Sequence record: NC_111505.1
Direction: 5' to 3' (one strand)
DNA length: 64,000 nt
Origin: a phage
The notes beneath the pieces were generated by a model. It was not told the origin of the DNA and made no database searches. It saw only the letters and a program-made list of their open reading frames with translations. This document shows positions 37,615 through 62,276 of this stretch, piece after piece. Position 1 is the stretch's first letter; every line of letters starts with the position of its first letter. Made by a program: the position numbers and the translations under genes.

Positions 37615-37689
37615 AACTGCCTCCTCTTCAAGTTATAGAAAAACTCACTGTATCGCTTTGTAACGAGCTTTTCTATCAAACTGGTGCGA

Positions 37690-37985
37690 TTGCCTTACTT
37701 GGTATAGTTTACGCAGCTGTGTGGCGATTTAGGGGCCTTCCTGTCCGTTTCCACACATAAACTTTAACCAAACTCGCGCGGGAGGCTCTCAACCGACTCC
37801 TTACGGCGCTGGCAAGCTTTCGTCGGTGGCCCACATTAGTGCTCGGCATTTGGCCTGCGCTATCGCTTCGCTCCCACACATGTTAACAGTCCTGCATGTA
37901 TGCACTCCTGTTATTGTGTGCACTATGGAGGCCCGGCATCTCGCCCCTCGTAGGCGAGTGCCAATGAGGGGCCGACACTACCAAT
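37690..37985. other. GC-rich ORF-free island with multiple stems (candidate structured RNA or regulatory leader)
   Basis: About 300 nt visibly more GC-rich than flanking DNA, with no ORF of 60 aa or more in any frame and several complementary segments (GCCCCTC/GAGGGGC, CCGAC/GTCGG, GGGAG/CTCCC). Confidence 0.2.
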
Positions 37986-38117
37986 AGTAAGTAATAAATT
38001 TAAAACATGGTACTTAGGATCTAGTATATTCTACATAAGTTAAGTATATGTACTTTAGTACCATAAGTACTAGATCTTTTATTTTTTATTATTTAGTTAT
38101 TTTAGTTATATTCTTTA

Positions 38118-38201
38118 TGTGTCCGTATCACGGACAGTTAGTGTCCGTATTACGGGCAGATGTGTCCGCGTGACGGACAGTAGTGTCCGTATCACGGACA
38201 G
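38118..38201. repeat. four tandem iterons, each an inverted repeat (TGTCCGT-nnn-ACGGACA)
   Basis: Units at 38118..38137, 38141..38159, 38161..38180 and 38183..38201 (period 20-22 bp), each a palindrome with 7-bp arms; preceded by an AT-rich tract (37985..38117) with AGTAC-type repeats. Confidence 0.7.
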
Positions 38202-38275
38202 TTACTACCCTCTGCTCTGGGATGGACATAAAACATACGAATCCTTATAGTACAGATATTTAAGTTTTTACTGGT

Positions 38276-38626
38276 CTAACCAGTTGTTGACATTCGAATA
38301 ACCTCTTCTGGTGGCAAAACTTTGGAAAATGTGCACCTTTTACCTCTCCCTTGTGTGGATATTTCAACCACTCCTGCACATTCTAAAGTTTTAACGCACG
38401 CTGCTGCTTTTGTTTTCTTTATCCCAACATCTGCTGCAATTTTCCTTGTGCTGGGTGTGAAGCGTGAACTTCCTCCAAGCTTATACCAGTTGTGCAGGTA
38501 GCAGTATACGATCTTGTCATACAAGTCAAGAATAACAACCTCCCCAGTTGTGTCATTCAAAACTTTTGACATAGACAGTATTTCAAGGGGGACTTTAAGA
38601 TATAGCAGCTTATCCCCATCTTTCAT
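38276..38626 (-). CDS. helix-turn-helix DNA-binding protein
   Basis: 116-aa ORF with HTH-like segment (RKIAADVGIKKTKAAACVKTLECAGVVEI), directly adjacent to the iteron array. Confidence 0.5.
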   Translation of the reverse strand: MKDGDKLLYLKVPLEILSMSKVLNDTTGEVVILDLYDKIVYCYLHNWYKLGGSSRFTPSTRKIAADVGIKKTKAAACVKTLECAGVVEISTQGRGKRCTFSKVLPPEEVIRMSTTG

Positions 38627-38673: not shown

Positions 38674-39228
38674 TTACTCACCGCTGTCAATAGCAAAACT
38701 CATTGCAATACGGTATGCCTCTTCTAATGGTAAGAGTCTCCCCCACACATCCCAACCGACATCAAACTGCCTGCCAAACAACTGCTGTGTGGTTCCGTGA
38801 GCATGACCGAACAGTTGGACTGATCCGTGAGGCTTTCTGTTCCACTTTGCAAACTGGTAATGGCTCATACAGATCAAATTCTTGTTGTGGCGAAGCTCGT
38901 AATAATCTACAACCTCATGACCGAACTCTTTCATAATTCTGACAGTCGTTCTTGTGTCATGGTTACCACGAACAAGAATAATATGTCCGTTCAACATATT
39001 TAGAACATCTGGAAGCAATTTGTTGATATTCTTATCATTAGTGCACGCAATATCCCCCAAGTGAAACACAGTGTCTGCAGGTGACACAACAGAGTTCCAC
39101 TTGGTGATGATTCCCGCATTCATACTGTCAAGATTGTGATCATACTGAGATCTGTGTTTTTGACATGAGTCGAACTCCATTACCCGCTGGTGGAGAAAGT
39201 GTGTGTCGCTTGTTACAAAGTATTTCAT
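38674..39228 (-). CDS. calcineurin-like metallophosphatase (Ser/Thr phosphatase family)
   Basis: Metallophosphoesterase motifs SDTHF, GDIACTN, VRGNHD, GHAHG. Start at ATG 39228..39226, 7 nt after the stop of the upstream kinase gene. Confidence 0.6.
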   Translation of the reverse strand: MKYFVTSDTHFLHQRVMEFDSCQKHRSQYDHNLDSMNAGIITKWNSVVSPADTVFHLGDIACTNDKNINKLLPDVLNMLNGHIILVRGNHDTRTTVRIMKEFGHEVVDYYELRHNKNLICMSHYQFAKWNRKPHGSVQLFGHAHGTTQQLFGRQFDVGWDVWGRLLPLEEAYRIAMSFAIDSGE

Positions 39229-39235
39229 ACATTCC

Positions 39236-39646
39236 TCATTTAAGTTTAATGCAGTTTTTAAGCTGGCGTTCCATACGATCCACAACCCTGTCTGGAACAT
39301 CATGAATGCTTTTATTACCATGGCGGTTTTCAACCACGATCACGGTATAACTATATCCATGACTGATCGCCATGTCAATATATTCTTGCACATATTTTTC
39401 TTTTGTAAACGTATTACTTACCACGATACGGTCGTAGCCCATACGCATCATATCTTCTACGTTATCTTTGCACCATTTTGCTGCAAGTGTTACTTTACTT
39501 GCATCCCAATTGTAATTGCCGTCATCGTCGTACCAGAACATATCGTTCTCAAAATGTGGATACAGACCTTCTAAAGATAGCGCATTTGCCAGTGTTGATT
39601 TGCCAGACCCTGGTAGACCACGCACGATATATAGCATTTTAGACAT
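39236..39646 (-). CDS. P-loop kinase (polynucleotide-kinase-like)
   Basis: Start at ATG 39646..39644 (MSKMLYIVRGLPGSGKST, Walker A) with RBS GGAGAG; N-terminus resembles the T4 Pnk kinase domain as recalled. Confidence 0.55.
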   Translation of the reverse strand: MSKMLYIVRGLPGSGKSTLANALSLEGLYPHFENDMFWYDDDGNYNWDASKVTLAAKWCKDNVEDMMRMGYDRIVVSNTFTKEKYVQEYIDMAISHGYSYTVIVVENRHGNKSIHDVPDRVVDRMERQLKNCIKLK

Positions 39647-39674
39647 AGTAACTCTCCGTTTTAATTTTAATGAT

Positions 39675-39703
39675 AGTATACCTAACTGTTTTGTTAATTT
39701 CAA
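39675..39703 (-). promoter_or_regulatory. sigma70-type promoter for the kinase/phosphatase operon
   Basis: Minus strand: -35 TTGAAA (39703..39698), 17-bp spacer, -10 TATACT (39680..39675), about 30 nt upstream of the kinase start. Confidence 0.4.
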
Positions 39704-39706
39704 GTG

Positions 39707-39736
39707 TTGACACCAGGTTATTTGTGTGGCAGAATA
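39707..39736 (+). promoter_or_regulatory. candidate divergent plus-strand promoter
   Basis: -35 TTGACA (39707..39712) lies 4 bp from the minus-strand -35; the -10 is weak (CAGAAT/AGAATA around 39730..39736). Confidence 0.3.
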
Positions 39737-39746
39737 AAGGGACAAA

Positions 39747-40682
39747 ATGACAAATGAGGAATGTATGATGAAGTATTTTAATGCAGACGACCTGGTTGAC
39801 AAAGGTCTTGTAACCAGCAGATATTACCCAGATCTTGGATTAAAGATCTACAAATATGCCAGAAAAGTATTCTACAACAATTTATGGCATTTGTCTCCGC
39901 GTTTACTAGAGTGCCGAGGCATTGTTGTCGGTAATGAAGGAAATGTTGTGGCATGGCCCTTCACAAAAGTGTTTAATTTGGGAGAAAACTCCACCAACCT
40001 GCCTGACAATAAACTTGTGACGGCGGTAGAGAAAAAGAACGGATTCCTTGGTGTGGTATCATCTCATAAAGGTGAACTATTGTTTTCAACAACCGGGTCT
40101 CTTGATTCTCCATATTGTAACCTTGCAAAGGAAACCATCCAGGAGCAATGTGGTAATTTAGATCTCATCAAAAAGGTTATGGGCCATGAAAACATGACAT
40201 TCATGTTTGAAATTTGTCACCCTTCAGATCCGCATATTGTTCAGGAAGACCATGGCGCATATTTGATAGGTTGCAGATATAACGATTCTGGAATAATGCT
40301 ACCAGAAGCAGCTTTAGATGGGATTGCCAAATACCTTGGTGCAAAACGTCCTCACACTGTGCGTGAAATTCCGTTCAGCTATGCAAAAGAATTAGCTGCA
40401 GAAACAAGAGGTGAAGGGTATATGATTCGTAAGCCTTACTACCCTTATGATCTGCAGCTGAAGATCAAGTCTCCATACTATTTGGCACGGAAGGCCGTAA
40501 TGAGGGGTAAAGCTTGGAAGATTTGGGATGATGATATCTTTAAACGTATTGACGAAGAGTTTTACGGCATGGTAAACTTCATTCGTAACAATTACACAGA
40601 AGATGTGTGGAACTGCCTCCTAGAGCAGGAACGCCGTGAGATACTTGACTGCTATTTCCACAACGAGGACTATATGCAATGA
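39747..40682 (+). CDS. putative nucleotidyltransferase / RNA-ligase-like protein
   Basis: Lys-containing KKNGF segment (AVEKKNGFLGVVS) resembles ligase motif I (KxDG/KxHG). In-frame ATGs at 39747, 39765 and 39768; RBS GAGGAA (39756..39761) favours 39765/39768. Confidence 0.35.
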   Translation: MTNEECMMKYFNADDLVDKGLVTSRYYPDLGLKIYKYARKVFYNNLWHLSPRLLECRGIVVGNEGNVVAWPFTKVFNLGENSTNLPDNKLVTAVEKKNGFLGVVSSHKGELLFSTTGSLDSPYCNLAKETIQEQCGNLDLIKKVMGHENMTFMFEICHPSDPHIVQEDHGAYLIGCRYNDSGIMLPEAALDGIAKYLGAKRPHTVREIPFSYAKELAAETRGEGYMIRKPYYPYDLQLKIKSPYYLARKAVMRGKAWKIWDDDIFKRIDEEFYGMVNFIRNNYTEDVWNCLLEQERREILDCYFHNEDYMQ

Positions 40683-41037: not shown

Positions 41038-41799
41038 ATGCGACGACTGATCATTATCTCCGGTGCTGGTTTGAGCGCTGAATCTGGTATCCCAACTTTC
41101 CGATCTGGTGGCACTGCAATGTGGGAGAATTTCAGCATCGATGAGGTGTGTAACATCCACACCTTTGCCAAGAACTACTATAAGGTTCATGACTTTTACA
41201 ATGCACGGCGTGTAGCTCTTGGCAGTGTTGATCCTAACCTTGCACATCTCCGGATCGCTGAGTGGTATTCCCGCTGGTCTGGTCGTGTGATTAACCTGAC
41301 CACCAATGTAGATGATTTGCTGGAGCGTGCTGGTGTAAAACATGAAGATATTTTACATGTCCACGGATATTTGCCAGAAATAGTCTACGAGGATGATGAA
41401 GGGAGTAACGTCATTAAAGACATTGGATACTCTGAGGTAGATGCAAGCAAGTATACTTGGGTTAAGCCTAATGTAGTGTTCTTCGGAGAAGTAGCTCCAA
41501 AGTATACAGACATGTATGACCTGTTGACTTCTCTGACGAGCAATGATATGGTTATCCTTGTAGGGTGCTCCAACACAGTTATCAATTTTAACTGGGAGCT
41601 ATTCCCTGCCTGTAATAAGGGGACCAAACTGCTGATCGTTAACAAATACGACTCACAGCATTTAGGGGAGAATGGCATTTCACGTAGTGACATTTACCAG
41701 TATGAGGATCGCGGCATCCCAGTTTGGTTTAACGGGGCTGTTGACGCTTTCTCTGATAAAACATTCATTGACATCGTAGAAAACTTTATGGAACTGTAA
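41038..41799 (+). CDS. Sir2 (sirtuin)-family NAD-binding protein
   Basis: Sirtuin signatures GAGLSAESGIPTFR, TTNVDDLLERAG and catalytic-type HVHGYL; no CxxC...CxxC zinc-ribbon pairs visible. Confidence 0.7.
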   Translation: MRRLIIISGAGLSAESGIPTFRSGGTAMWENFSIDEVCNIHTFAKNYYKVHDFYNARRVALGSVDPNLAHLRIAEWYSRWSGRVINLTTNVDDLLERAGVKHEDILHVHGYLPEIVYEDDEGSNVIKDIGYSEVDASKYTWVKPNVVFFGEVAPKYTDMYDLLTSLTSNDMVILVGCSNTVINFNWELFPACNKGTKLLIVNKYDSQHLGENGISRSDIYQYEDRGIPVWFNGAVDAFSDKTFIDIVENFMEL

Positions 41800-41813: not shown

Positions 41814-42527
41814 ATGCTGAATACTAAACTGATTGACAACTTGGAAAAACTGTCTCAGCCTGAAAACTACCTTTGGTCTGCCAACTGGGTGGAAAATTGG
41901 AACCGTGTAGCAGCTAAAGTGAAAAAATCATACACACCATTCGAACTTCAGCTGAGTTTCATTGAGGAAGAGTTCAATGAAGTTTTGGAAGAGTTGGAGA
42001 AAGGTGATGGTGGGGATCATCTCCTAAAAGAGGCCTGCGATCTTCACGTTGTCACAAGTTATGCCGCTTATCTTGTTAACGATAACCATGAAAAGTGGTC
42101 AAACCTGTTTGATAATCCGCGAGGTCTTAAGTTTAAGATCGGTGAATTTTATGATACATTGATCGCTGCGAAAAATACCTCTAAGCAAAGAGCGTCTGCT
42201 TACCGCTTAGCAGAGTTGTCAACAGCTTTGCTGTTCCAGCTTCGCGGCGATGTGTGCGGGATGATGCGTAAGGTTCTCAAATCGAATGACAGCAAGTTTG
42301 CACGGGTCAACCATCTACGGTATTCACACGGTGCCAGTGCAGATATGCCTGCTGAACAACTCATCGAGTTGGAGATTAAAGATCTTGAGCGACGCTTTGA
42401 TGGTCGATATGAAGGTTTTGTTGCTAAGGAAGAATTCTACAACGGAAATAAAGTTATCATATTCCTCGACAGTAAAGGTAAGATTATGAAGCCTTCAAGC
42501 TTCAAGGATGTAACAGAATATATTTAA
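41814..42527 (+). CDS. putative MazG-like nucleotide pyrophosphohydrolase
   Basis: EExxE...E..D-type motif (EEEFNEVLEELEKGD...LKEACDLHVV); RBS GCGGAGG 7 nt upstream. Confidence 0.35.
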   Translation: MLNTKLIDNLEKLSQPENYLWSANWVENWNRVAAKVKKSYTPFELQLSFIEEEFNEVLEELEKGDGGDHLLKEACDLHVVTSYAAYLVNDNHEKWSNLFDNPRGLKFKIGEFYDTLIAAKNTSKQRASAYRLAELSTALLFQLRGDVCGMMRKVLKSNDSKFARVNHLRYSHGASADMPAEQLIELEIKDLERRFDGRYEGFVAKEEFYNGNKVIIFLDSKGKIMKPSSFKDVTEYI

Positions 42528-42533
42528 CAACAT

Positions 42534-42560
42534 AGCCGGGGCGATCCCGGCTTTACTTGT
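42534..42560 (+). terminator. rho-independent terminator
   Basis: Hairpin AGCCGGG-GCGAT-CCCGGCT (42534..42552) followed by a T-rich tract, 7 nt after the stop at 42527. Confidence 0.5.
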
Positions 42561-42900: not shown

Positions 42901-43156
42901 TCTTGCTAAACCTGTAGAAGCACACCAGTTTGATGGAAGCTCTTCATCAGTATCTGATCTGCAACGGTGGATTGATACAGGTGTGTTTACATCGTCACCT
43001 GTTCGAACCAGAGATATTCTTCGCATGTGTGAGCTTGTCGAGCCGTTTGGTAACCTTGTCTTGTACCAAGGGGATTGGTTAGTTGACTTTATGGGAGACT
43101 GGTTGGTAATGAGCAAAGAAGAGATGTTTAAAATTTTTAAGGAAGAGGCTGAGTAA
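42887..43156 (+). CDS. hypothetical protein
   Basis: 89-aa ORF coupled to both neighbours. Confidence 0.4.
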   Translation: MPLFNLAKPVEAHQFDGSSSSVSDLQRWIDTGVFTSSPVRTRDILRMCELVEPFGNLVLYQGDWLVDFMGDWLVMSKEEMFKIFKEEAE

Positions 43157-44439
43157 TGCATCAGATCAAAACAACACTGTACGCACTGAACAAAGATGGC
43201 AGCTACCAACAGTGGAAAGTATTCACGGATGGTGATAAGGTTATCGTAGAGTTTGGCAAGCTTGATGGTAAACTGCAATACAAAGAGACGATCTGCACAC
43301 CTAAGAACGTTGGTCGTGCCAATGAAACTACAGCTGAGCAACAGGCTGAGCTGGAAGCGATCAGTAAGTGGGAAAAACAAGTCCGTCTTGGGTATGTTGA
43401 AAATATGGAAGATTGCGAGCAGGGTGTTGACCTTTTACCCATGCTGGTGCATGACTACCTGAAGCGTGGAAAGGCACTTAAATTACCTTGCTGGATCTTG
43501 CGTAAGTTAGATGGCCTTCGTCTACTTGTTGTTTTCCAAAATGGTGAGCCTAAATTTATTTCCCGTGGTAATAAGTCCTACCCTATTCAAGGAAAGCTTC
43601 TGGAGCAACTTCGTTCTTTCCACTTCACCACCGGTATTAAACAGCTCGACGGAGAGATCTATATTCATGGCCTGCCTCTGCAGAAAATAGTGTCTCTTGC
43701 TAAACGGTGGCGCACACAGGAAGAGATTCAGGCCGAGATCGATAAAGACTACGAGGCAGATAAAAAACGCCGTCATGCCGCAATTAAGGCAGGCTTATCA
43801 ACATACAAAAACTTCAACAAGGTAGATATTCCTGTTGATGTTGAGCCTGTTCGTGATGATTTGCGTTACGGTGGGTACTGTAGCTACGATCTAGAGTATC
43901 ACATTTTTGATATTCCTAGTGACAAGGTGTGGTGGGATCCAGAAACAGAATCTGGACGCTGCAAGGATCTTATGGATGTAGAAGATACCATTACCACTCT
44001 GATGCTTGACCATATCAAGGTTGTTGACGCAGAGCTTGCGTACACAGTTGATCATTGCGAAGAATCTGTCGGTGTATTCATGTCCGAAGGGTATGAAGGT
44101 ACTATCATGCGTAACTTCTGTGGTAAATACGAATACGGTCAGCGAACATCTGAAGCATTGAAATGGAAAAAGTTCAACGATGCTGAGGTGAAAGTTATTG
44201 ACGTTGAGAAAGATAAGAATGATGAAGGTGTTCTTATCTGTGTTGACAAGGAAGGTATTGTTGTTAAAATGAAGATGAAAGGTACGCACGAGGAGCGTAG
44301 CTATGACAGGATGCAGGAAATGATCGGCAAGTTTGTCACCTTCAAATATCAAGCAAGGACAGAAGACAACAACTACCAATTCCCTGTCGGTATCTGCGTC
44401 CGAAATGTTAACCCAGACACTTGGGAGGTGCTGGAATAA
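43156..44439 (+). CDS. ATP-dependent DNA ligase
   Basis: Ligase motif I KLDGLR (WILRKLDGLRLLVV), motif IV-like EGYEGTIMR and motif V-like KWKKF; 427 aa. Confidence 0.65.
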   Translation: MHQIKTTLYALNKDGSYQQWKVFTDGDKVIVEFGKLDGKLQYKETICTPKNVGRANETTAEQQAELEAISKWEKQVRLGYVENMEDCEQGVDLLPMLVHDYLKRGKALKLPCWILRKLDGLRLLVVFQNGEPKFISRGNKSYPIQGKLLEQLRSFHFTTGIKQLDGEIYIHGLPLQKIVSLAKRWRTQEEIQAEIDKDYEADKKRRHAAIKAGLSTYKNFNKVDIPVDVEPVRDDLRYGGYCSYDLEYHIFDIPSDKVWWDPETESGRCKDLMDVEDTITTLMLDHIKVVDAELAYTVDHCEESVGVFMSEGYEGTIMRNFCGKYEYGQRTSEALKWKKFNDAEVKVIDVEKDKNDEGVLICVDKEGIVVKMKMKGTHEERSYDRMQEMIGKFVTFKYQARTEDNNYQFPVGICVRNVNPDTWEVLE

Positions 44440-59115: not shown

Positions 59116-59394
59116 ATGAGCTGCGAAAAATCTTTTTTCATCATCATTTACGGTAAGGATAACTGCCCACATTGTGTAAGAGCAAAAGAATTTGCAGTCA
59201 GTAAAGGCATACCTTTCGTATACAAGACGCTAGGTGAAGGATACACAAAAGAAGAGCTTATCGAGAAGTGTAGCCCATTTGTTCCCAGAACGTTGCCTCA
59301 GATCTTCTTGGAAAGCAACCTTGACAGTATTCACATAGGTGGTGCTGACGATTTCATCTCTTTTGTTAAGAATGGTTTTGGAGAGAAAAAGTGA
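59116..59394 (+). CDS. glutaredoxin-like protein
   Basis: 92-aa ORF with CPHC redox motif (YGKDNCPHCVRAKEF), between nrdB and nrdD. Confidence 0.6.
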   Translation: MSCEKSFFIIIYGKDNCPHCVRAKEFAVSKGIPFVYKTLGEGYTKEELIEKCSPFVPRTLPQIFLESNLDSIHIGGADDFISFVKNGFGEKK

Positions 59395-60551
59395 AAGTTG
59401 TAAAACGGGACGGTAGAGAAGAGTTTTATAACGGAATTAAGGTGATCAAGGCGGCAGAGTCCGCCTTACTTGAGTCTGGACATACTGAAGAAGAAGCTTA
59501 CCGGATTGCCTGTGCGGTTAATGAAGTTGTTGCCAACAATCTGCCAACTGACCAGTGCACGATCTCTGTAAAAAATATCCATATCCTTGTTGAAGATGCT
59601 CTTATGGATATGGGTTTAAAATGTGCAGCCAGAGAATACATCCAGTATAGACAGACAAGAGATAATAACAGAGAGGCAGGTGGAAAACTGCTTGCCGATA
59701 TTAGTGGCTTCTTGGATCGTACTTGTGATGAATTTACAAAAGAAAACGCAAATAAGCCTACTAATCATGTACACACTCATCGTGACCTGCTTGCAGGAAT
59801 CCTTAGCAAACATCTTGCATCAACACAGATCCTGCCAGACCGTGTCTCTGAAGAGCACAACAAAGGCTTCATCCATGTGCATGATCTTGACTACCTGATC
59901 AGTCCGTTAACAAACTGTTGTTTGGTAAATTATCCGGATATGCTGGAAAACGGATTCAACATTGGCAACGCCCATGTCAGTAAGCCGAAGTCAATAGGGG
60001 TTGCAACAACAATCCTTAGCCAAATCTCTAGTGCAGTAGCTAGTGCTCAATATGGCGGTCAGACCATGAGTCATATTGATCATTATTTGGCACAGTATGC
60101 TGAAGCAACTTATGAGAAGAACCTTAAATTTTGTCAGGAACATTGGTTGCCAGATGCTGAGACTGTTGCAATGCAAATGACAGATAAAGACGTGTTTGAT
60201 AGTATGCAAACTTTGCTCTACCAAATCAATACGTTAACTTCTGTCAACGGGCAAACCCCATTCATCACATTAAGTTTAGGGCTGGATACTTCGGTCTTTG
60301 GTAGAATGATTACCAAAAACTACTTGAAAGTTCACAAAATGGGTCTTGGTGAAGAACGGATCACACCTGTGTTCCCTAAAGTGCTGTTCTTCTTAGAGGA
60401 GGGTGTCAACATGAACCCTGGGGATCCTAACTACGATTTGAAACGGTTGGCCCTAGAATGCTCTGCAGAGCGGATTTATCCTGACTTTGTTTCTGTTCCT
60501 CTAAATCGTAAAGTGACAGGTTCAACAGACGGCAAAGTAACAAGCATGGGT
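59391..60551 (+). CDS. nrdD: anaerobic ribonucleotide reductase, exon 1
   Basis: GTG start overlapping the glutaredoxin stop (RBS GGAGAG). Exon ends after ...TSMG at U60551, which pairs with internal guide GCTCATG (60563..60569) to form a 7-bp P1. Confidence 0.8.
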
Positions 60552-61313
60552 AAACTATAACTGCTCATGTAAAATCTATCTAAACGGGGAAACTCCAGAA
60601 CGGACAATCCCGTGCTAAACGTAACAGAACTCCTGACTAAGAGGAGTCCTGAAATGAGAAAACAAATTCGTGATTTTGAAGGTTATGAAATTGACGAGAT
60701 GGGCAATGTTTATTGCACCCGATACGAAAATGAAAGAATTATTCATTCGTGGGAAGAGATAAACACAGGTTACCGTCTTGTCAGGATACGCAAGAACAAA
60801 AAGACTGTTTGCCTAAGGGTTCACAGACTTGTTGCTGAAGCGTTTTTACCAAATCCAGACAATTTACCATATGTTAAGCACAAAGGTGACAACAGGAAAG
60901 ATAACAGCGTATACAACCTTGAGTGGGGAGCTTGCCCAGACAATACTCAAGAAGGATACGACAACAACTGTTATGCTTTTTACACAAGATGTCACGGGGT
61001 GAAAGCCACCCACAAATTAACTGGTGTGGTTATTCACTTTAAGAGTCTGAGATGTTGTGCTGATGTTTTAGGAATAGATAGAAAAAGAATATCTGCTATC
61101 CTGAAACGTGGTGCACCTAATAACTATGATTACGAGTTCTGTTACGAAATGCCTAACGACTAACCGTGATGAATGTAGCGGTGTAGGGTGTAAGCTGATG
61201 ACACTCGAAATGGTAGACACACTAAGTGTGAAGATATAGTCTGATCTGCATGGGGACATGCAGCAGCACGTAAAGGTGCGGGGGTGGCCTTGCGAACCAC
61301 CTTGAACATAATG
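60552..61313 (+). mobile_element. group I intron in nrdD carrying an HNH homing endonuclease ORF
   Basis: 762 nt. 5' region AATCTATCTAAACGGGG...GACAATCCCGTGCTAAA and 3' end ...CATGCAGCAGCACG...GAACATAATG resemble T4 td-type group I introns as recalled; ends in G61313. Exons join in frame (SMG|CRSFL). Confidence 0.7.
60654..61163 (+). CDS. intron-encoded HNH homing endonuclease
   Basis: Start at ATG 60654 with RBS GAGGAG; HNH_3-type motif VHRLVAEAFLPNP...KHKGDNRKDNSVYNLEW. Confidence 0.65.
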   Translation: MRKQIRDFEGYEIDEMGNVYCTRYENERIIHSWEEINTGYRLVRIRKNKKTVCLRVHRLVAEAFLPNPDNLPYVKHKGDNRKDNSVYNLEWGACPDNTQEGYDNNCYAFYTRCHGVKATHKLTGVVIHFKSLRCCADVLGIDRKRISAILKRGAPNNYDYEFCYEMPND

Positions 61314-62276
61314 TGTAGAAGTTTCTTATCGAAATATAGCGACCCTGTAACAGGCGAGGAGAAATACCTTGGCAGATTCAACTTGGGTGTTGTTAGCCTT
61401 AACCTACCAATGATTGCGGCAAAAGCTAAGACGGAAGGTATTGATTTCTTTGCAGTTCTTGACGAATACCTGGATCTTGCATACGAGGCTCACCTTGTAA
61501 GGGTTAACCGTCTAAAAGGAACAAAGGCAGGGCAGAACCCTATCATGTGGTGTGAAGGAGCTCTTGCTCGCCTGGATCCTGAAGAGAGTATCGATAAACT
61601 CTCCTATGACGGGTACGCTTCCATCAGTATTGGGTATATTGGTGTGTATGAAACCTGTCAGATTTTGGGCAGAGAGGGTGACAAGGCTTTAGCTCTTGGA
61701 ATCCTTCAGCACATGAAAGATGCTTGTGAGCGATACAAGAAGGAAAGTGGACTAGCATTTAGCTTGTACGGCACACCTTCTGAGAGTTTATGCTATAAAG
61801 CTGCAACCTGTCTGGATCGTGAATACCCAGAAGTGTTGAAGCACGAGCATGAATACCTCACCAACAGTTTCCATCAGCCAGTATGGATCAATAGCTCGCC
61901 TTTTGATAAGTGGAAGTATGAGGAAGGTTTTGCTATGATCTCCTCTGGTGGCAACATTGGATACATAGAAACACCTAATCTGAAAAACAACCTGGATGCT
62001 TTGGAATCTCTTGTCGATTTCGGGTATAAACACATTATGTATTTTGGTATTAACCAACCTGTGGATAAATGTCTTAAATGTGGATTCTCTGGTGAGTTCA
62101 GTGCAACAGCTAAAGGCTTTGTATGCCCAGAGTGCGGAAACCATGAAGAGGGAACGATCAGTGTGATTAGACGTGTATCCGGGTATCTGTCCAGTCCAAA
62201 CTCCCGCCCTTACAATAAGGGTAAGCAAGCGGAGGTTATAGAACGGGTTAAGCACTACGGAAGTTGTGGTTGCTGA
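61314..62276 (+). CDS. nrdD: anaerobic ribonucleotide reductase, exon 2
   Basis: Begins CRSFLSKYSD... in frame with exon 1; C-terminal zinc site CLKCGFSG...CPECG and glycyl-radical motif RVSGYLS. Confidence 0.8.
   Translation, partial: CRSFLSKYSDPVTGEEKYLGRFNLGVVSLNLPMIAAKAKTEGIDFFAVLDEYLDLAYEAHLVRVNRLKGTKAGQNPIMWCEGALARLDPEESIDKLSYDGYASISIGYIGVYETCQILGREGDKALALGILQHMKDACERYKKESGLAFSLYGTPSESLCYKAATCLDREYPEVLKHEHEYLTNSFHQPVWINSSPFDKWKYEEGFAMISSGGNIGYIETPNLKNNLDALESLVDFGYKHIMYFGINQPVDKCLKCGFSGEFSATAKGFVCPECGNHEEGTISVIRRVSGYLSSPNSRPYNKGKQAEVIERVKHYGSCGC

Follow-up and report, generated by a model that had tools for sequence, protein, structure and literature searches.

Nucleases that cleave tRNA, such as PrrC, RloC, PARIS, retron-Eco7 and the HEPN effectors, form a major branch of bacterial immunity, and to our knowledge the T4 enzymes Pnkp (pseT) and Rnl1 (gp63), which counter PrrC, are essentially the only means of repair demonstrated by experiment in phages. 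The Pnkp/Hen1 system of Clostridium thermocellum brings together a 5'-kinase with a P-loop, a binuclear metallophosphoesterase and a ligase that uses ATP (PMC2190708, PMC3675462), and fungi and plants carry Trl1 (LIG-KIN-CPD) together with Tpt1. In addition, Iyer, Burroughs, Anantharaman & Aravind 2022 (PMC9503650) predicted an RNA-repair system from a genomic neighbourhood "prototyped by Escherichia phage V5". Here we analyzed a stretch of 64,000 nucleotides of phage DNA (sequence record NC_111505.1), referred to as a whole as the window, in which genes for a metallophosphoesterase, a P-loop kinase and a ligase (the trio) lie side by side. The original prediction, made from the letters of the window, had read them as an RNA-repair module, and this reading was supported by the profile and fold of the ligase, the homology of the kinase, the active site of the phosphatase, and the linkage and fusions of the three genes. 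We put the probability that the trio encodes a pathway in which three enzymes of an rV5-like phage heal and seal RNA at about 0.7.

In the proposed pathway, a ribonuclease would break RNA, most plausibly in a tRNA anticodon loop, leaving 2',3'-cyclic phosphate at one new end with 5'-OH at the other. The metallophosphoesterase would then take off the 3'-terminal phosphate, the P-loop kinase would phosphorylate the 5'-OH, and the Rnl1-type ligase would reseal the break via a lysyl-AMP intermediate on its motif I lysine (K90). Three proteins encoded to the right, a cyclic-phosphate-processing receiver-like protein (cREC), a zinc-less Sir2 protein and a MazG-like protein, would be lineage-specific add-ons for cyclic or 2'-phosphate or for NAD-derived by-products, co-transcribed with the ligase. 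The substrates, the reaction order and the counter-defence purpose are those that we infer for the module.

The locus is similar to the T4 pair in that a phage encodes a 5'-kinase, a remover of 3'-phosphate and an Rnl1-family ligase; the ligase has a homologous nucleotidyltransferase domain with the essential residues kept, and the kinase is homologous and has the catalytic Asp. Whereas the T4 kinase is fused to a DxDxT (HAD) phosphatase domain, the phosphatase here is a binuclear metallophosphoesterase and a protein of its own; the ligase has neither the 120-aa tRNA-specific C-domain nor K119 of T4 Rnl1, and cREC, Sir2 and MazG-like genes are attached. With Clostridium thermocellum Pnkp/Hen1 the locus shares the three enzyme types, although it has three polypeptides instead of one, an Rnl1-type instead of a Pnkp-type ligase, a metallophosphoesterase of a different clade (nearest to aq_1665) and no Hen1 methyltransferase partner. 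The likeness to Trl1 and Tpt1 lies in a ligase fold that matches Trl1-LIG (E 3e-12), in healing and sealing with a P-loop kinase, and in kinase-ligase fusions of related phages; however, the phage order is KIN-LIG, not LIG-KIN, and the module has no 2H cyclic phosphodiesterase and no Tpt1/KptA. Type 2 of Iyer et al. 2022 ('Escherichia phage V5 / Proteus phage Mydo') corresponds to this very locus and phage group, and comprises genes for a T4-like tRNA ligase and cREC, for a nucleotide kinase and a sirtuin, and for MazG and a calcineurin-like phosphoesterase (PMC9503650). That description is centred on the sirtuin and treats the phosphoesterase as 'occasional', whereas our survey, given below, places phosphoesterase and kinase in the core and confines sirtuin and cREC to Vequintavirinae-like phages.

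A candidate RNA-repair trio in an rV5-like phage

A 4.4-kb stretch around the trio showed 99.3% identity to Escherichia phages ECP2303 and ECP2309, and 121 phage records matched it at 90-99% identity, nearly all of them from rV5-like (Vequintavirus) E. coli phages; the window is from an rV5-like phage. The three predicted open reading frames (ORFs) are present (Table 1; the ligase frame had been read as 39747-40682 on the plus strand), and GenBank records of relatives carry coding sequences at the same positions. These are labelled 'putative phosphoresterase', 'polynucleotide kinase' and 'RNA ligase' in Bas54/MaxBurger, and 'phosphohydrolase', '3'-phosphatase, 5'-polynucleotide kinase' and 'RNA ligase 1 and tail attachment protein' in ECP32. 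Pfam also gave a family match for each protein: Metallophos_2/Metallophos, AAA_33 and RNA_lig_T4_1.

The ligase call had been considered weak, an assessment that does not hold: sequence profile and predicted fold together make a strong case for an Rnl1-type RNA ligase. The protein matched PF09511 (RNA_lig_T4_1) with an E-value of 8.3e-15 and 55.7 bits (gathering threshold 28.3), and phrog_562 with an E-value of 1.8e-66. A homologue search of 5.8 billion proteins yielded 547 relatives, ~300 aa long and encoded by phages that infect Pseudomonas, Vibrio and other hosts, 31 of which were used for the family alignment (residue numbers, such as K90, follow a 305-aa reading). K90-x-N92-G93, F148-E149, E217-G218 and K233-x-K235 were invariant in this alignment, and so were R51, K68 and F70, the equivalents of the Rnl1-specific residues Arg54, Lys75 and Phe77; the KxNG lysine, once described as motif I-like, can thus be taken as motif I. 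Family profiles were needed because PDB searches with the single sequences of the ligase and of the kinase returned nothing useful. With its profile, the ligase family matched T4 Rnl1 (2c5u) with an E-value of 6.3e-15 over residues 51-250; R51, K68, F70, K90 and G93 aligned to R54, K75, F77, K99 and G102 of T4 Rnl1, and E149, E217, G218, K233 and K235 to E159, E227, G228, K240 and K242.

The AlphaFold (AF2) model of the ligase had a predicted local distance difference test score (pLDDT) of 92.5. Its best Foldseek matches were Trl1-LIG and T4 Rnl1 (E ~3e-12, template modelling score (TM) ~0.63), followed by archaeal Rnl3, with E-values ranging from 3e-12 to 1e-8. All of the best fold matches were RNA ligases, and the first DNA ligase, from African swine fever virus (ASFV), appeared at E ~7e-5. 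A DNA ligase identity, which had been named among the outcomes that together would overturn the RNA-repair reading, is accordingly disfavoured by profile as well as by fold, with DNA ligases far below RNA ligases in both. Trl1 was not detected by the sequence profile of the ligase, unlike T4 Rnl1; a His-Arg-Arg triad for the 2'-PO4 is a feature of fungal Trl1 (PMC11404444). Against the NCBIfam model for T4 RnlA equivalogs (TIGR02308) the protein scored 39.1 bits, compared to a cutoff of 242, and covered profile positions 32-251; judged by this score, it is not a T4 RnlA equivalog.

The start of the ligase gene had been placed at 39747. In the alignment of Bas54, ECP32 and L003, a metagenomic relative that is 90% identical, the ATG at 39768 alone was conserved: ECP32 reads ATA at 39765, and L003 has no ATG at 39747 or 39765. 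Since this ATG is the only conserved one and a GAGGA lies 9 nt upstream of it, the true start is probably 39768; GenBank starts in relatives are at 39765 or 39768.

For the kinase and the phosphatase, family alignments were built from related loci. The kinase matched AAA_33 with an E-value of 2.7e-10 and also phrog_2071, with phrog_505 'polynucleotide kinase' as a weaker match (E 3e-10). Its profile matched T4 Pnk with E-values of 1.4e-7 (1ly1, profile 1-128 on chain 1-144) and 4.1e-7 (1ltq), the kinase domain of Clostridium thermocellum Pnkp with 2e-7 (4gp7, profile 3-132 on chain 10-143) and Pnkp1 with 7.6e-8 (4xrp). The T4 Pnk and CthPnkp matches were full-length, while those to nicotinamide riboside kinase and other small-molecule kinases were restricted to the P-loop. 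G10, G15 and K16 of the P-loop (GxxGxGKS/T) and D35 were invariant in the family, and D35 aligned to the general base D35 of T4 Pnk in the profile alignment. A Pnk-like N-terminus had been proposed for this protein, and the full-length match and the retained D35 bear this out; by profile comparison, the closest solved full-length relatives of the kinase are polynucleotide 5'-kinases.

The phosphatase scored above cutoff against Metallophos_2 and Metallophos of Pfam, and it matched phrog_547 'phosphoesterase' with an E-value of 5e-51. D8, H10, G58-D59, G88-N89-H90, H123 and G141-H142-x-H144 were invariant among 23 homologues, so that every metal-ligand motif of a binuclear metallophosphoesterase is intact, in agreement with the initial call of a metallophosphatase. 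The nearest PDB entry to its profile was Aquifex aq_1665 (1xm7, E 2.5e-23), an uncharacterised protein, and GpdQ-like enzymes matched as well.

Linkage of the three genes across phages

The ligase profile, run against viral contigs, detected 80 loci with 37-90% identity, which were dereplicated at 85% ligase identity to 53 lineages, the window included. Counted within 3 kb of the ligase, phosphatase homologues were present in 45/53 lineages, kinase homologues in 42/53, and both together in 39/53; several lineages without a phosphatase or kinase near the ligase are contigs ending close to the ligase. Phosphatase and kinase are therefore, in this ligase-anchored survey, a widespread conserved core with the ligase. 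The order of the trio varies by lineage, with the phosphatase upstream or downstream and the kinase upstream, downstream or overlapping, and the trio is co-directional with the ligase in all lineages except that of the window. Kinase and ligase are fused into proteins of ~430 aa at 11 loci, and the phrog_8238 profile (737 positions) likewise holds kinase and ligase in a single polypeptide. Linkage that has outlasted rearrangement, combined with the fusions, argues more strongly than anything else in this analysis for a joint function of the three proteins.

Beside the kinase-ligase fusions (L037, L041 and L051), no recognisable substitute phosphatase was found. A second-ligase-like gene of a different type, judged by its motif I EKLDGSS alone, was seen near the fusions in L037 (3550-6118) and L041 (12509-13588), and in L037 it is interrupted by an inserted ORF. 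A gene resembling the cluster of PRPP-synthetase-like proteins was also present beside the fusion genes of L037, L041 and L051.

Table 1. Positions in the window of the trio and of the features around it.
Feature	Coordinates	Strand	Basis and remarks
Phage tRNA cluster: Ile2/Met(CAU), Thr(UGU), Lys(UUU), Ser(UGA), Tyr(GUA), Arg(UCU)	35014..35737	-	ARAGORN, Infernal
Binuclear metallophosphoesterase, 184 aa; proposed 3'-end healing (2',3'-cyclic, 3'-, 2'-phosphate)	38674..39228	-	Metallophos_2, Metallophos, phrog_547
P-loop kinase, 136 aa; proposed RNA 5'-OH polynucleotide kinase	39236..39646	-	AAA_33, phrog_2071, phrog_505
Divergent intergenic region with back-to-back sigma70-like promoter matches	39647..39767		also genome-wide strand-switch point
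Rnl1-type ATP-dependent RNA ligase (predicted)	39768..40682	+	304 aa from 39768; alternative ATGs 39765, 39747; PF09511, phrog_562
cREC (cyclic-phosphate-processing receiver-like), 116 aa	40679..41029	+	PF20274, E 4.5e-14
Sir2-family NAD+-dependent enzyme (predicted), 253 aa, without Cys4 zinc module	41038..41799	+	PF02146, phrog_2162
MazG-like nucleotide pyrophosphohydrolase (predicted), 237 aa; last gene of unit	41814..42527	+	phrog_671, E 5e-22
GC-rich hairpin and T-run, intrinsic-terminator-like on both strands	42534..42552		closes ligase-cREC-Sir2-MazG unit

Genes co-oriented with the ligase and neighbours in other lineages

The module extends rightwards past the trio into cREC, Sir2 and MazG-like genes, which had previously been missed, and the ligase, cREC, Sir2 and MazG-like genes apparently form one operon. 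The cREC protein scored 53.3 bits against PF20274 (threshold 27), and its start codon overlaps the ligase stop codon in the sequence ATGA. Among 30 homologues, R12, D51, D53, H87, S89, N90 and K96 were invariant and D9/D10 nearly so; the AF2 model had a pLDDT of 91.9, and its best PDB folds were receiver domains, weakly matched (TM 0.61, E ~1e-2). A 2021 paper on jumbo phages (PMC7824862) gave cREC its name and predicted that it is an enzyme that processes cyclic phosphates. The Sir2 protein matched PF02146 with an E-value of 1.1e-26 and phrog_2162 with 9e-109, and it scored under every deacylase cutoff of NCBIfam. Its motifs are GAGLSAESGIPTFR, TTNVDDL and HVHG, with the NAD-binding GAGLS and the catalytic His kept, and the zinc module is taken to be absent because the sequence contains no CxxC pairs. 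This clade of sirtuins has been tied to RNA repair (PMC9503650). The MazG-like protein had no Pfam match, and it co-occurs with Sir2 and cREC in Vequintavirinae-like loci.

cREC accompanies the ligase in 7/53 lineages and Sir2 in ~6/53, and the three additional genes occur with the ligase solely in the Vequintavirinae-like subset. Elsewhere, the trio was found near NAMPT-like (22/53) and PRPP-synthetase-like (22/53) genes, and also near HD (16), Macro (10) and dCMP deaminase (10) genes. The NAMPT-like and PRPP-synthetase-like pair resembles the NARP1 pair for NAD+ reconstitution, and the neighbours of the trio in non-rV5 lineages (L004-L082) point to an NAD/ADP-ribose, anti-defence island context. 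In the right arm of the window, 10 large ORFs were checked for NAD-salvage genes and none was found; 5 belonged to nucleotide-metabolism families and 5 had no Pfam match.

Strand switch and tRNA cluster

The trio had been described as sitting around a single divergent promoter region, and promoter matches indeed face both ways. The rightward match consists of TTGACA (39707), a spacer of 17 nt and CAGAAT with an extended TG, and the leftward matches are TTGAAA/TATACT (39703-39675) and TTAACA/TATCAT (39697-39670). TTGACA and a downstream TGTGTGGCA block are kept even in the diverged L003, in which the remaining spacer has diverged. However, this 118-bp region is the strand switch of the whole genome and not a private promoter of the module. 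All ORFs of >150 aa lie on the minus strand to the left of 39647 and on the plus strand to the right of 39765, save a few shadow ORFs that overlap longer main-strand genes, and the GC skew changes sign at the divergent region, with its cumulative minimum at ~39.7 kb. Since both coding strand and GC skew switch there, the 'divergent promoter' is best seen as the junction of two genome arms, and in rV5-like phages the module straddles the genome strand-switch point. This switch could mark a replication origin. A helix-turn-helix (HTH) protein (38276-38626), belonging to a 'replication initiation protein' group in PHROGs, is encoded 1 kb to the left of it.

An exact 17-mer, AAATGAGGAATGTATGA, occurs just twice in the window, at 39225-39241 (-) and 39752-39768 (+), in equal register at the start codons of phosphatase and ligase, whose proteins both begin with MKYF. 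As an inverted repeat, the two copies flank the kinase gene and the promoter region; Bas54 and ECP32 each show one mismatch in the ligase copy. A translational signal common to both genes, or a remnant of the rearrangement, may explain the 17-mer.

The trio was said to lie next to the tRNA cluster. It is near the cluster but not adjacent, as ~2.9 kb, with small ORFs and the HTH gene, separate the cluster from the phosphatase gene. The phage tRNAs are possible substrates of the module, or possible back-ups for cleaved host tRNAs. One of them, of 99 nt at 35172-35268 (-), was reported by ARAGORN as 'tRNA-???' with a 4-base anticodon, and by Infernal as a tRNA-Lys(UUU) whose anticodon loop is normal and whose variable region carries an insertion of 26 nt; such a long variable arm is unusual for tRNA-Lys. 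Because PrrC and PARIS target tRNA-Lys(UUU), an atypical phage tRNA-Lys near the repair module is suggestive. We also considered the module as a phage tRNA-splicing system, and rejected this because the odd tRNA has a normal anticodon loop with no intron there according to Infernal.

Two further regions of the window deserve mention. The nrdD gene for anaerobic ribonucleotide reductase (59391-62276, +) is split into two ORFs, which cover positions 1-263 and 263-562 of the Pfam NRDD profile and lie ~720 bp apart, the gap holding an ORF of 183 aa (60612-61163). The arrangement has the look of an inserted intron or homing endonuclease, and no Rfam group I intron was detected at threshold. Between an ORF of 192 aa and the HTH gene, ~660 bp (37615-38275) have no convincing ORF and no Rfam family match; the Bas54 annotation of the equivalent region contains three coding sequences only, of 31-56 aa.

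Alternative readings

Several observations weigh against RNA healing and sealing by the trio. The position of T4 Rnl1 K119 is an invariant Thr in the ligase family, and ~70 aa follow motif V, compared to the 120-aa tRNA-specificity C-domain of T4 Rnl1 (residues 255-374); both features weaken the case for tRNA as the substrate. In the kinase family, the position of T4 Pnk R38 is W/F/Y-like and has no Arg, and of the lid residues of T4 Pnk, R122 aligns to the R of ENRHG, which is not invariant, while the position of R126 is a Lys in the kinase of the window. RNA 2',3'-cyclic-phosphate healing is proven within the metallophosphoesterase superfamily for CthPnkp and lambda phosphatase (PMC2190708, PMC3675462). 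Neither of these was among the PDB matches of the phosphatase profile, and the phosphatase has no GDxxDR(G) motif, reading LGDIACT instead; it lies outside the CthPnkp/lambda-phosphatase clade. Since it falls outside that clade and its nearest structure is uncharacterised, it is the genomic context that argues for an activity on RNA ends. No biochemical study of any protein of the module was found in the literature. Finally, in transposon sequencing of Bas54 (HIDEN-SEQ, 2025 preprint, doi 10.1101/2025.11.20.689424), whose DNA is 95.6% identical, the resampling rows for sirtuin, cREC, ligase, kinase and phosphoesterase list no depletion of insertions in the uropathogenic E. coli (UPEC) isolates CFE303/CFE311 relative to K-12 (log2 fold change +0.1 to +0.4, q >= 0.75). 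On E. coli K-12, the same work classed the ligase, kinase, phosphoesterase, sirtuin and MazG-like genes as 'Non-essential' and cREC as 'Intermediate'; such dispensability fits what is expected of a conditional accessory system.

The published alternative (Iyer et al. 2022, PMC9503650) is an NAD+-dependent route similar to that of Trl1 and Tpt1, in which cREC, and not the metallophosphoesterase, would yield a 2'-phosphate by opening the 2',3'-cyclic phosphate, sealing by the ligase would leave a 2'-PO4 junction, Sir2 would strip the 2'-PO4 with NAD+ as KptA/Tpt1 does, and MazG and the metallophosphoesterase would clear the by-products. It would account for the translational or operonic coupling of cREC and Sir2 to the ligase and for the cREC gene that lies between the ligase and kinase genes in some related Vequintavirinae-like phages. 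It is also in keeping with a ligase model that fits fungal Trl1-LIG as well as T4 Rnl1, and with the NAD/ADP-ribose theme of the NAMPT-like, PRPP-synthetase-like and Macro neighbours elsewhere. Nevertheless, cREC and Sir2 are rare beside the ligase when compared to the 39/53 lineages with phosphatase and kinase, and therefore the core pathway would work without them and this route would not be the core one. Moreover, the sequence profile of the ligase finds T4 Rnl1 and not Trl1, and the literature contains no demonstrated 2'-phosphotransferase activity of a sirtuin or phosphodiesterase activity of cREC. We consider it unlikely that the module follows this route, and equally doubtful that the rV5-type module runs a eukaryote-like (Trl1/Tpt1-style) tRNA ligation with non-orthologous parts. 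It would nonetheless be the interesting outcome, because the receiver fold and the sirtuin fold would then each need a catalytic activity that is new to it.

Readings in which the trio is not an RNA-repair set, namely DNA-end repair and tail-fibre attachment, are poorly supported. The kinase and phosphatase could heal 5'-OH/3'-PO4 DNA for the ATP-dependent DNA ligase encoded nearby (43156-44439), with the 'RNA ligase' acting on DNA or RNA-DNA junctions. Both DNA and RNA are substrates of T4 Pnkp, and a homologue of that DNA ligase is found near the trio in 21/53 lineages. The phosphatase also has a weak match to PdeM, the ligase-associated DNA-damage endonuclease (TIGR04123), but at 20.6 bits against a cutoff of 150, and it was rejected as a PdeM. 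As the ligase groups with single-strand RNA ligases by profile and fold, with DNA ligases far lower, and the fused kinases are joined to the RNA ligase and not to a DNA ligase, we find repair of DNA ends very improbable. Still harder to credit is a ligase that serves mainly as a catalyst of tail-fibre attachment, like the second activity of T4 gp63, beside a kinase and phosphatase that are unrelated enzymes of nucleotide or NAD metabolism. The database label 'RNA ligase 1 and tail attachment protein' and the partial P-loop matches of the kinase to nicotinamide riboside and other small-molecule kinases suggest it; yet such labels are transferred by homology to T4, and the kinase matches Pnk over its full length. 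In addition, the catalytic residues of the ligase are all invariant in the family, its gene is dispensable for plaque formation by Bas54, and the tight linkage and the fusions would be left unexplained.

Implications

The RNA-repair module is already annotated in this phage group and already published as a prediction for it; consequently the novelty of the module itself is nil and its interest modest. What our survey adds is the view of phosphatase and kinase as the core, the kinase-ligase fusions, the corrected ligase start and the position at the strand switch. As a predicted RNA heal-and-seal pathway, the rV5-type kit would be a second, widespread solution to RNA damage, assembled from different parts than that of T4, in E. 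coli phages that are candidates for therapy. Its genetics are now tractable with the Bas54 transposon library, and it would be worth showing which host nuclease the kit defeats and what roles cREC and the sirtuin play.

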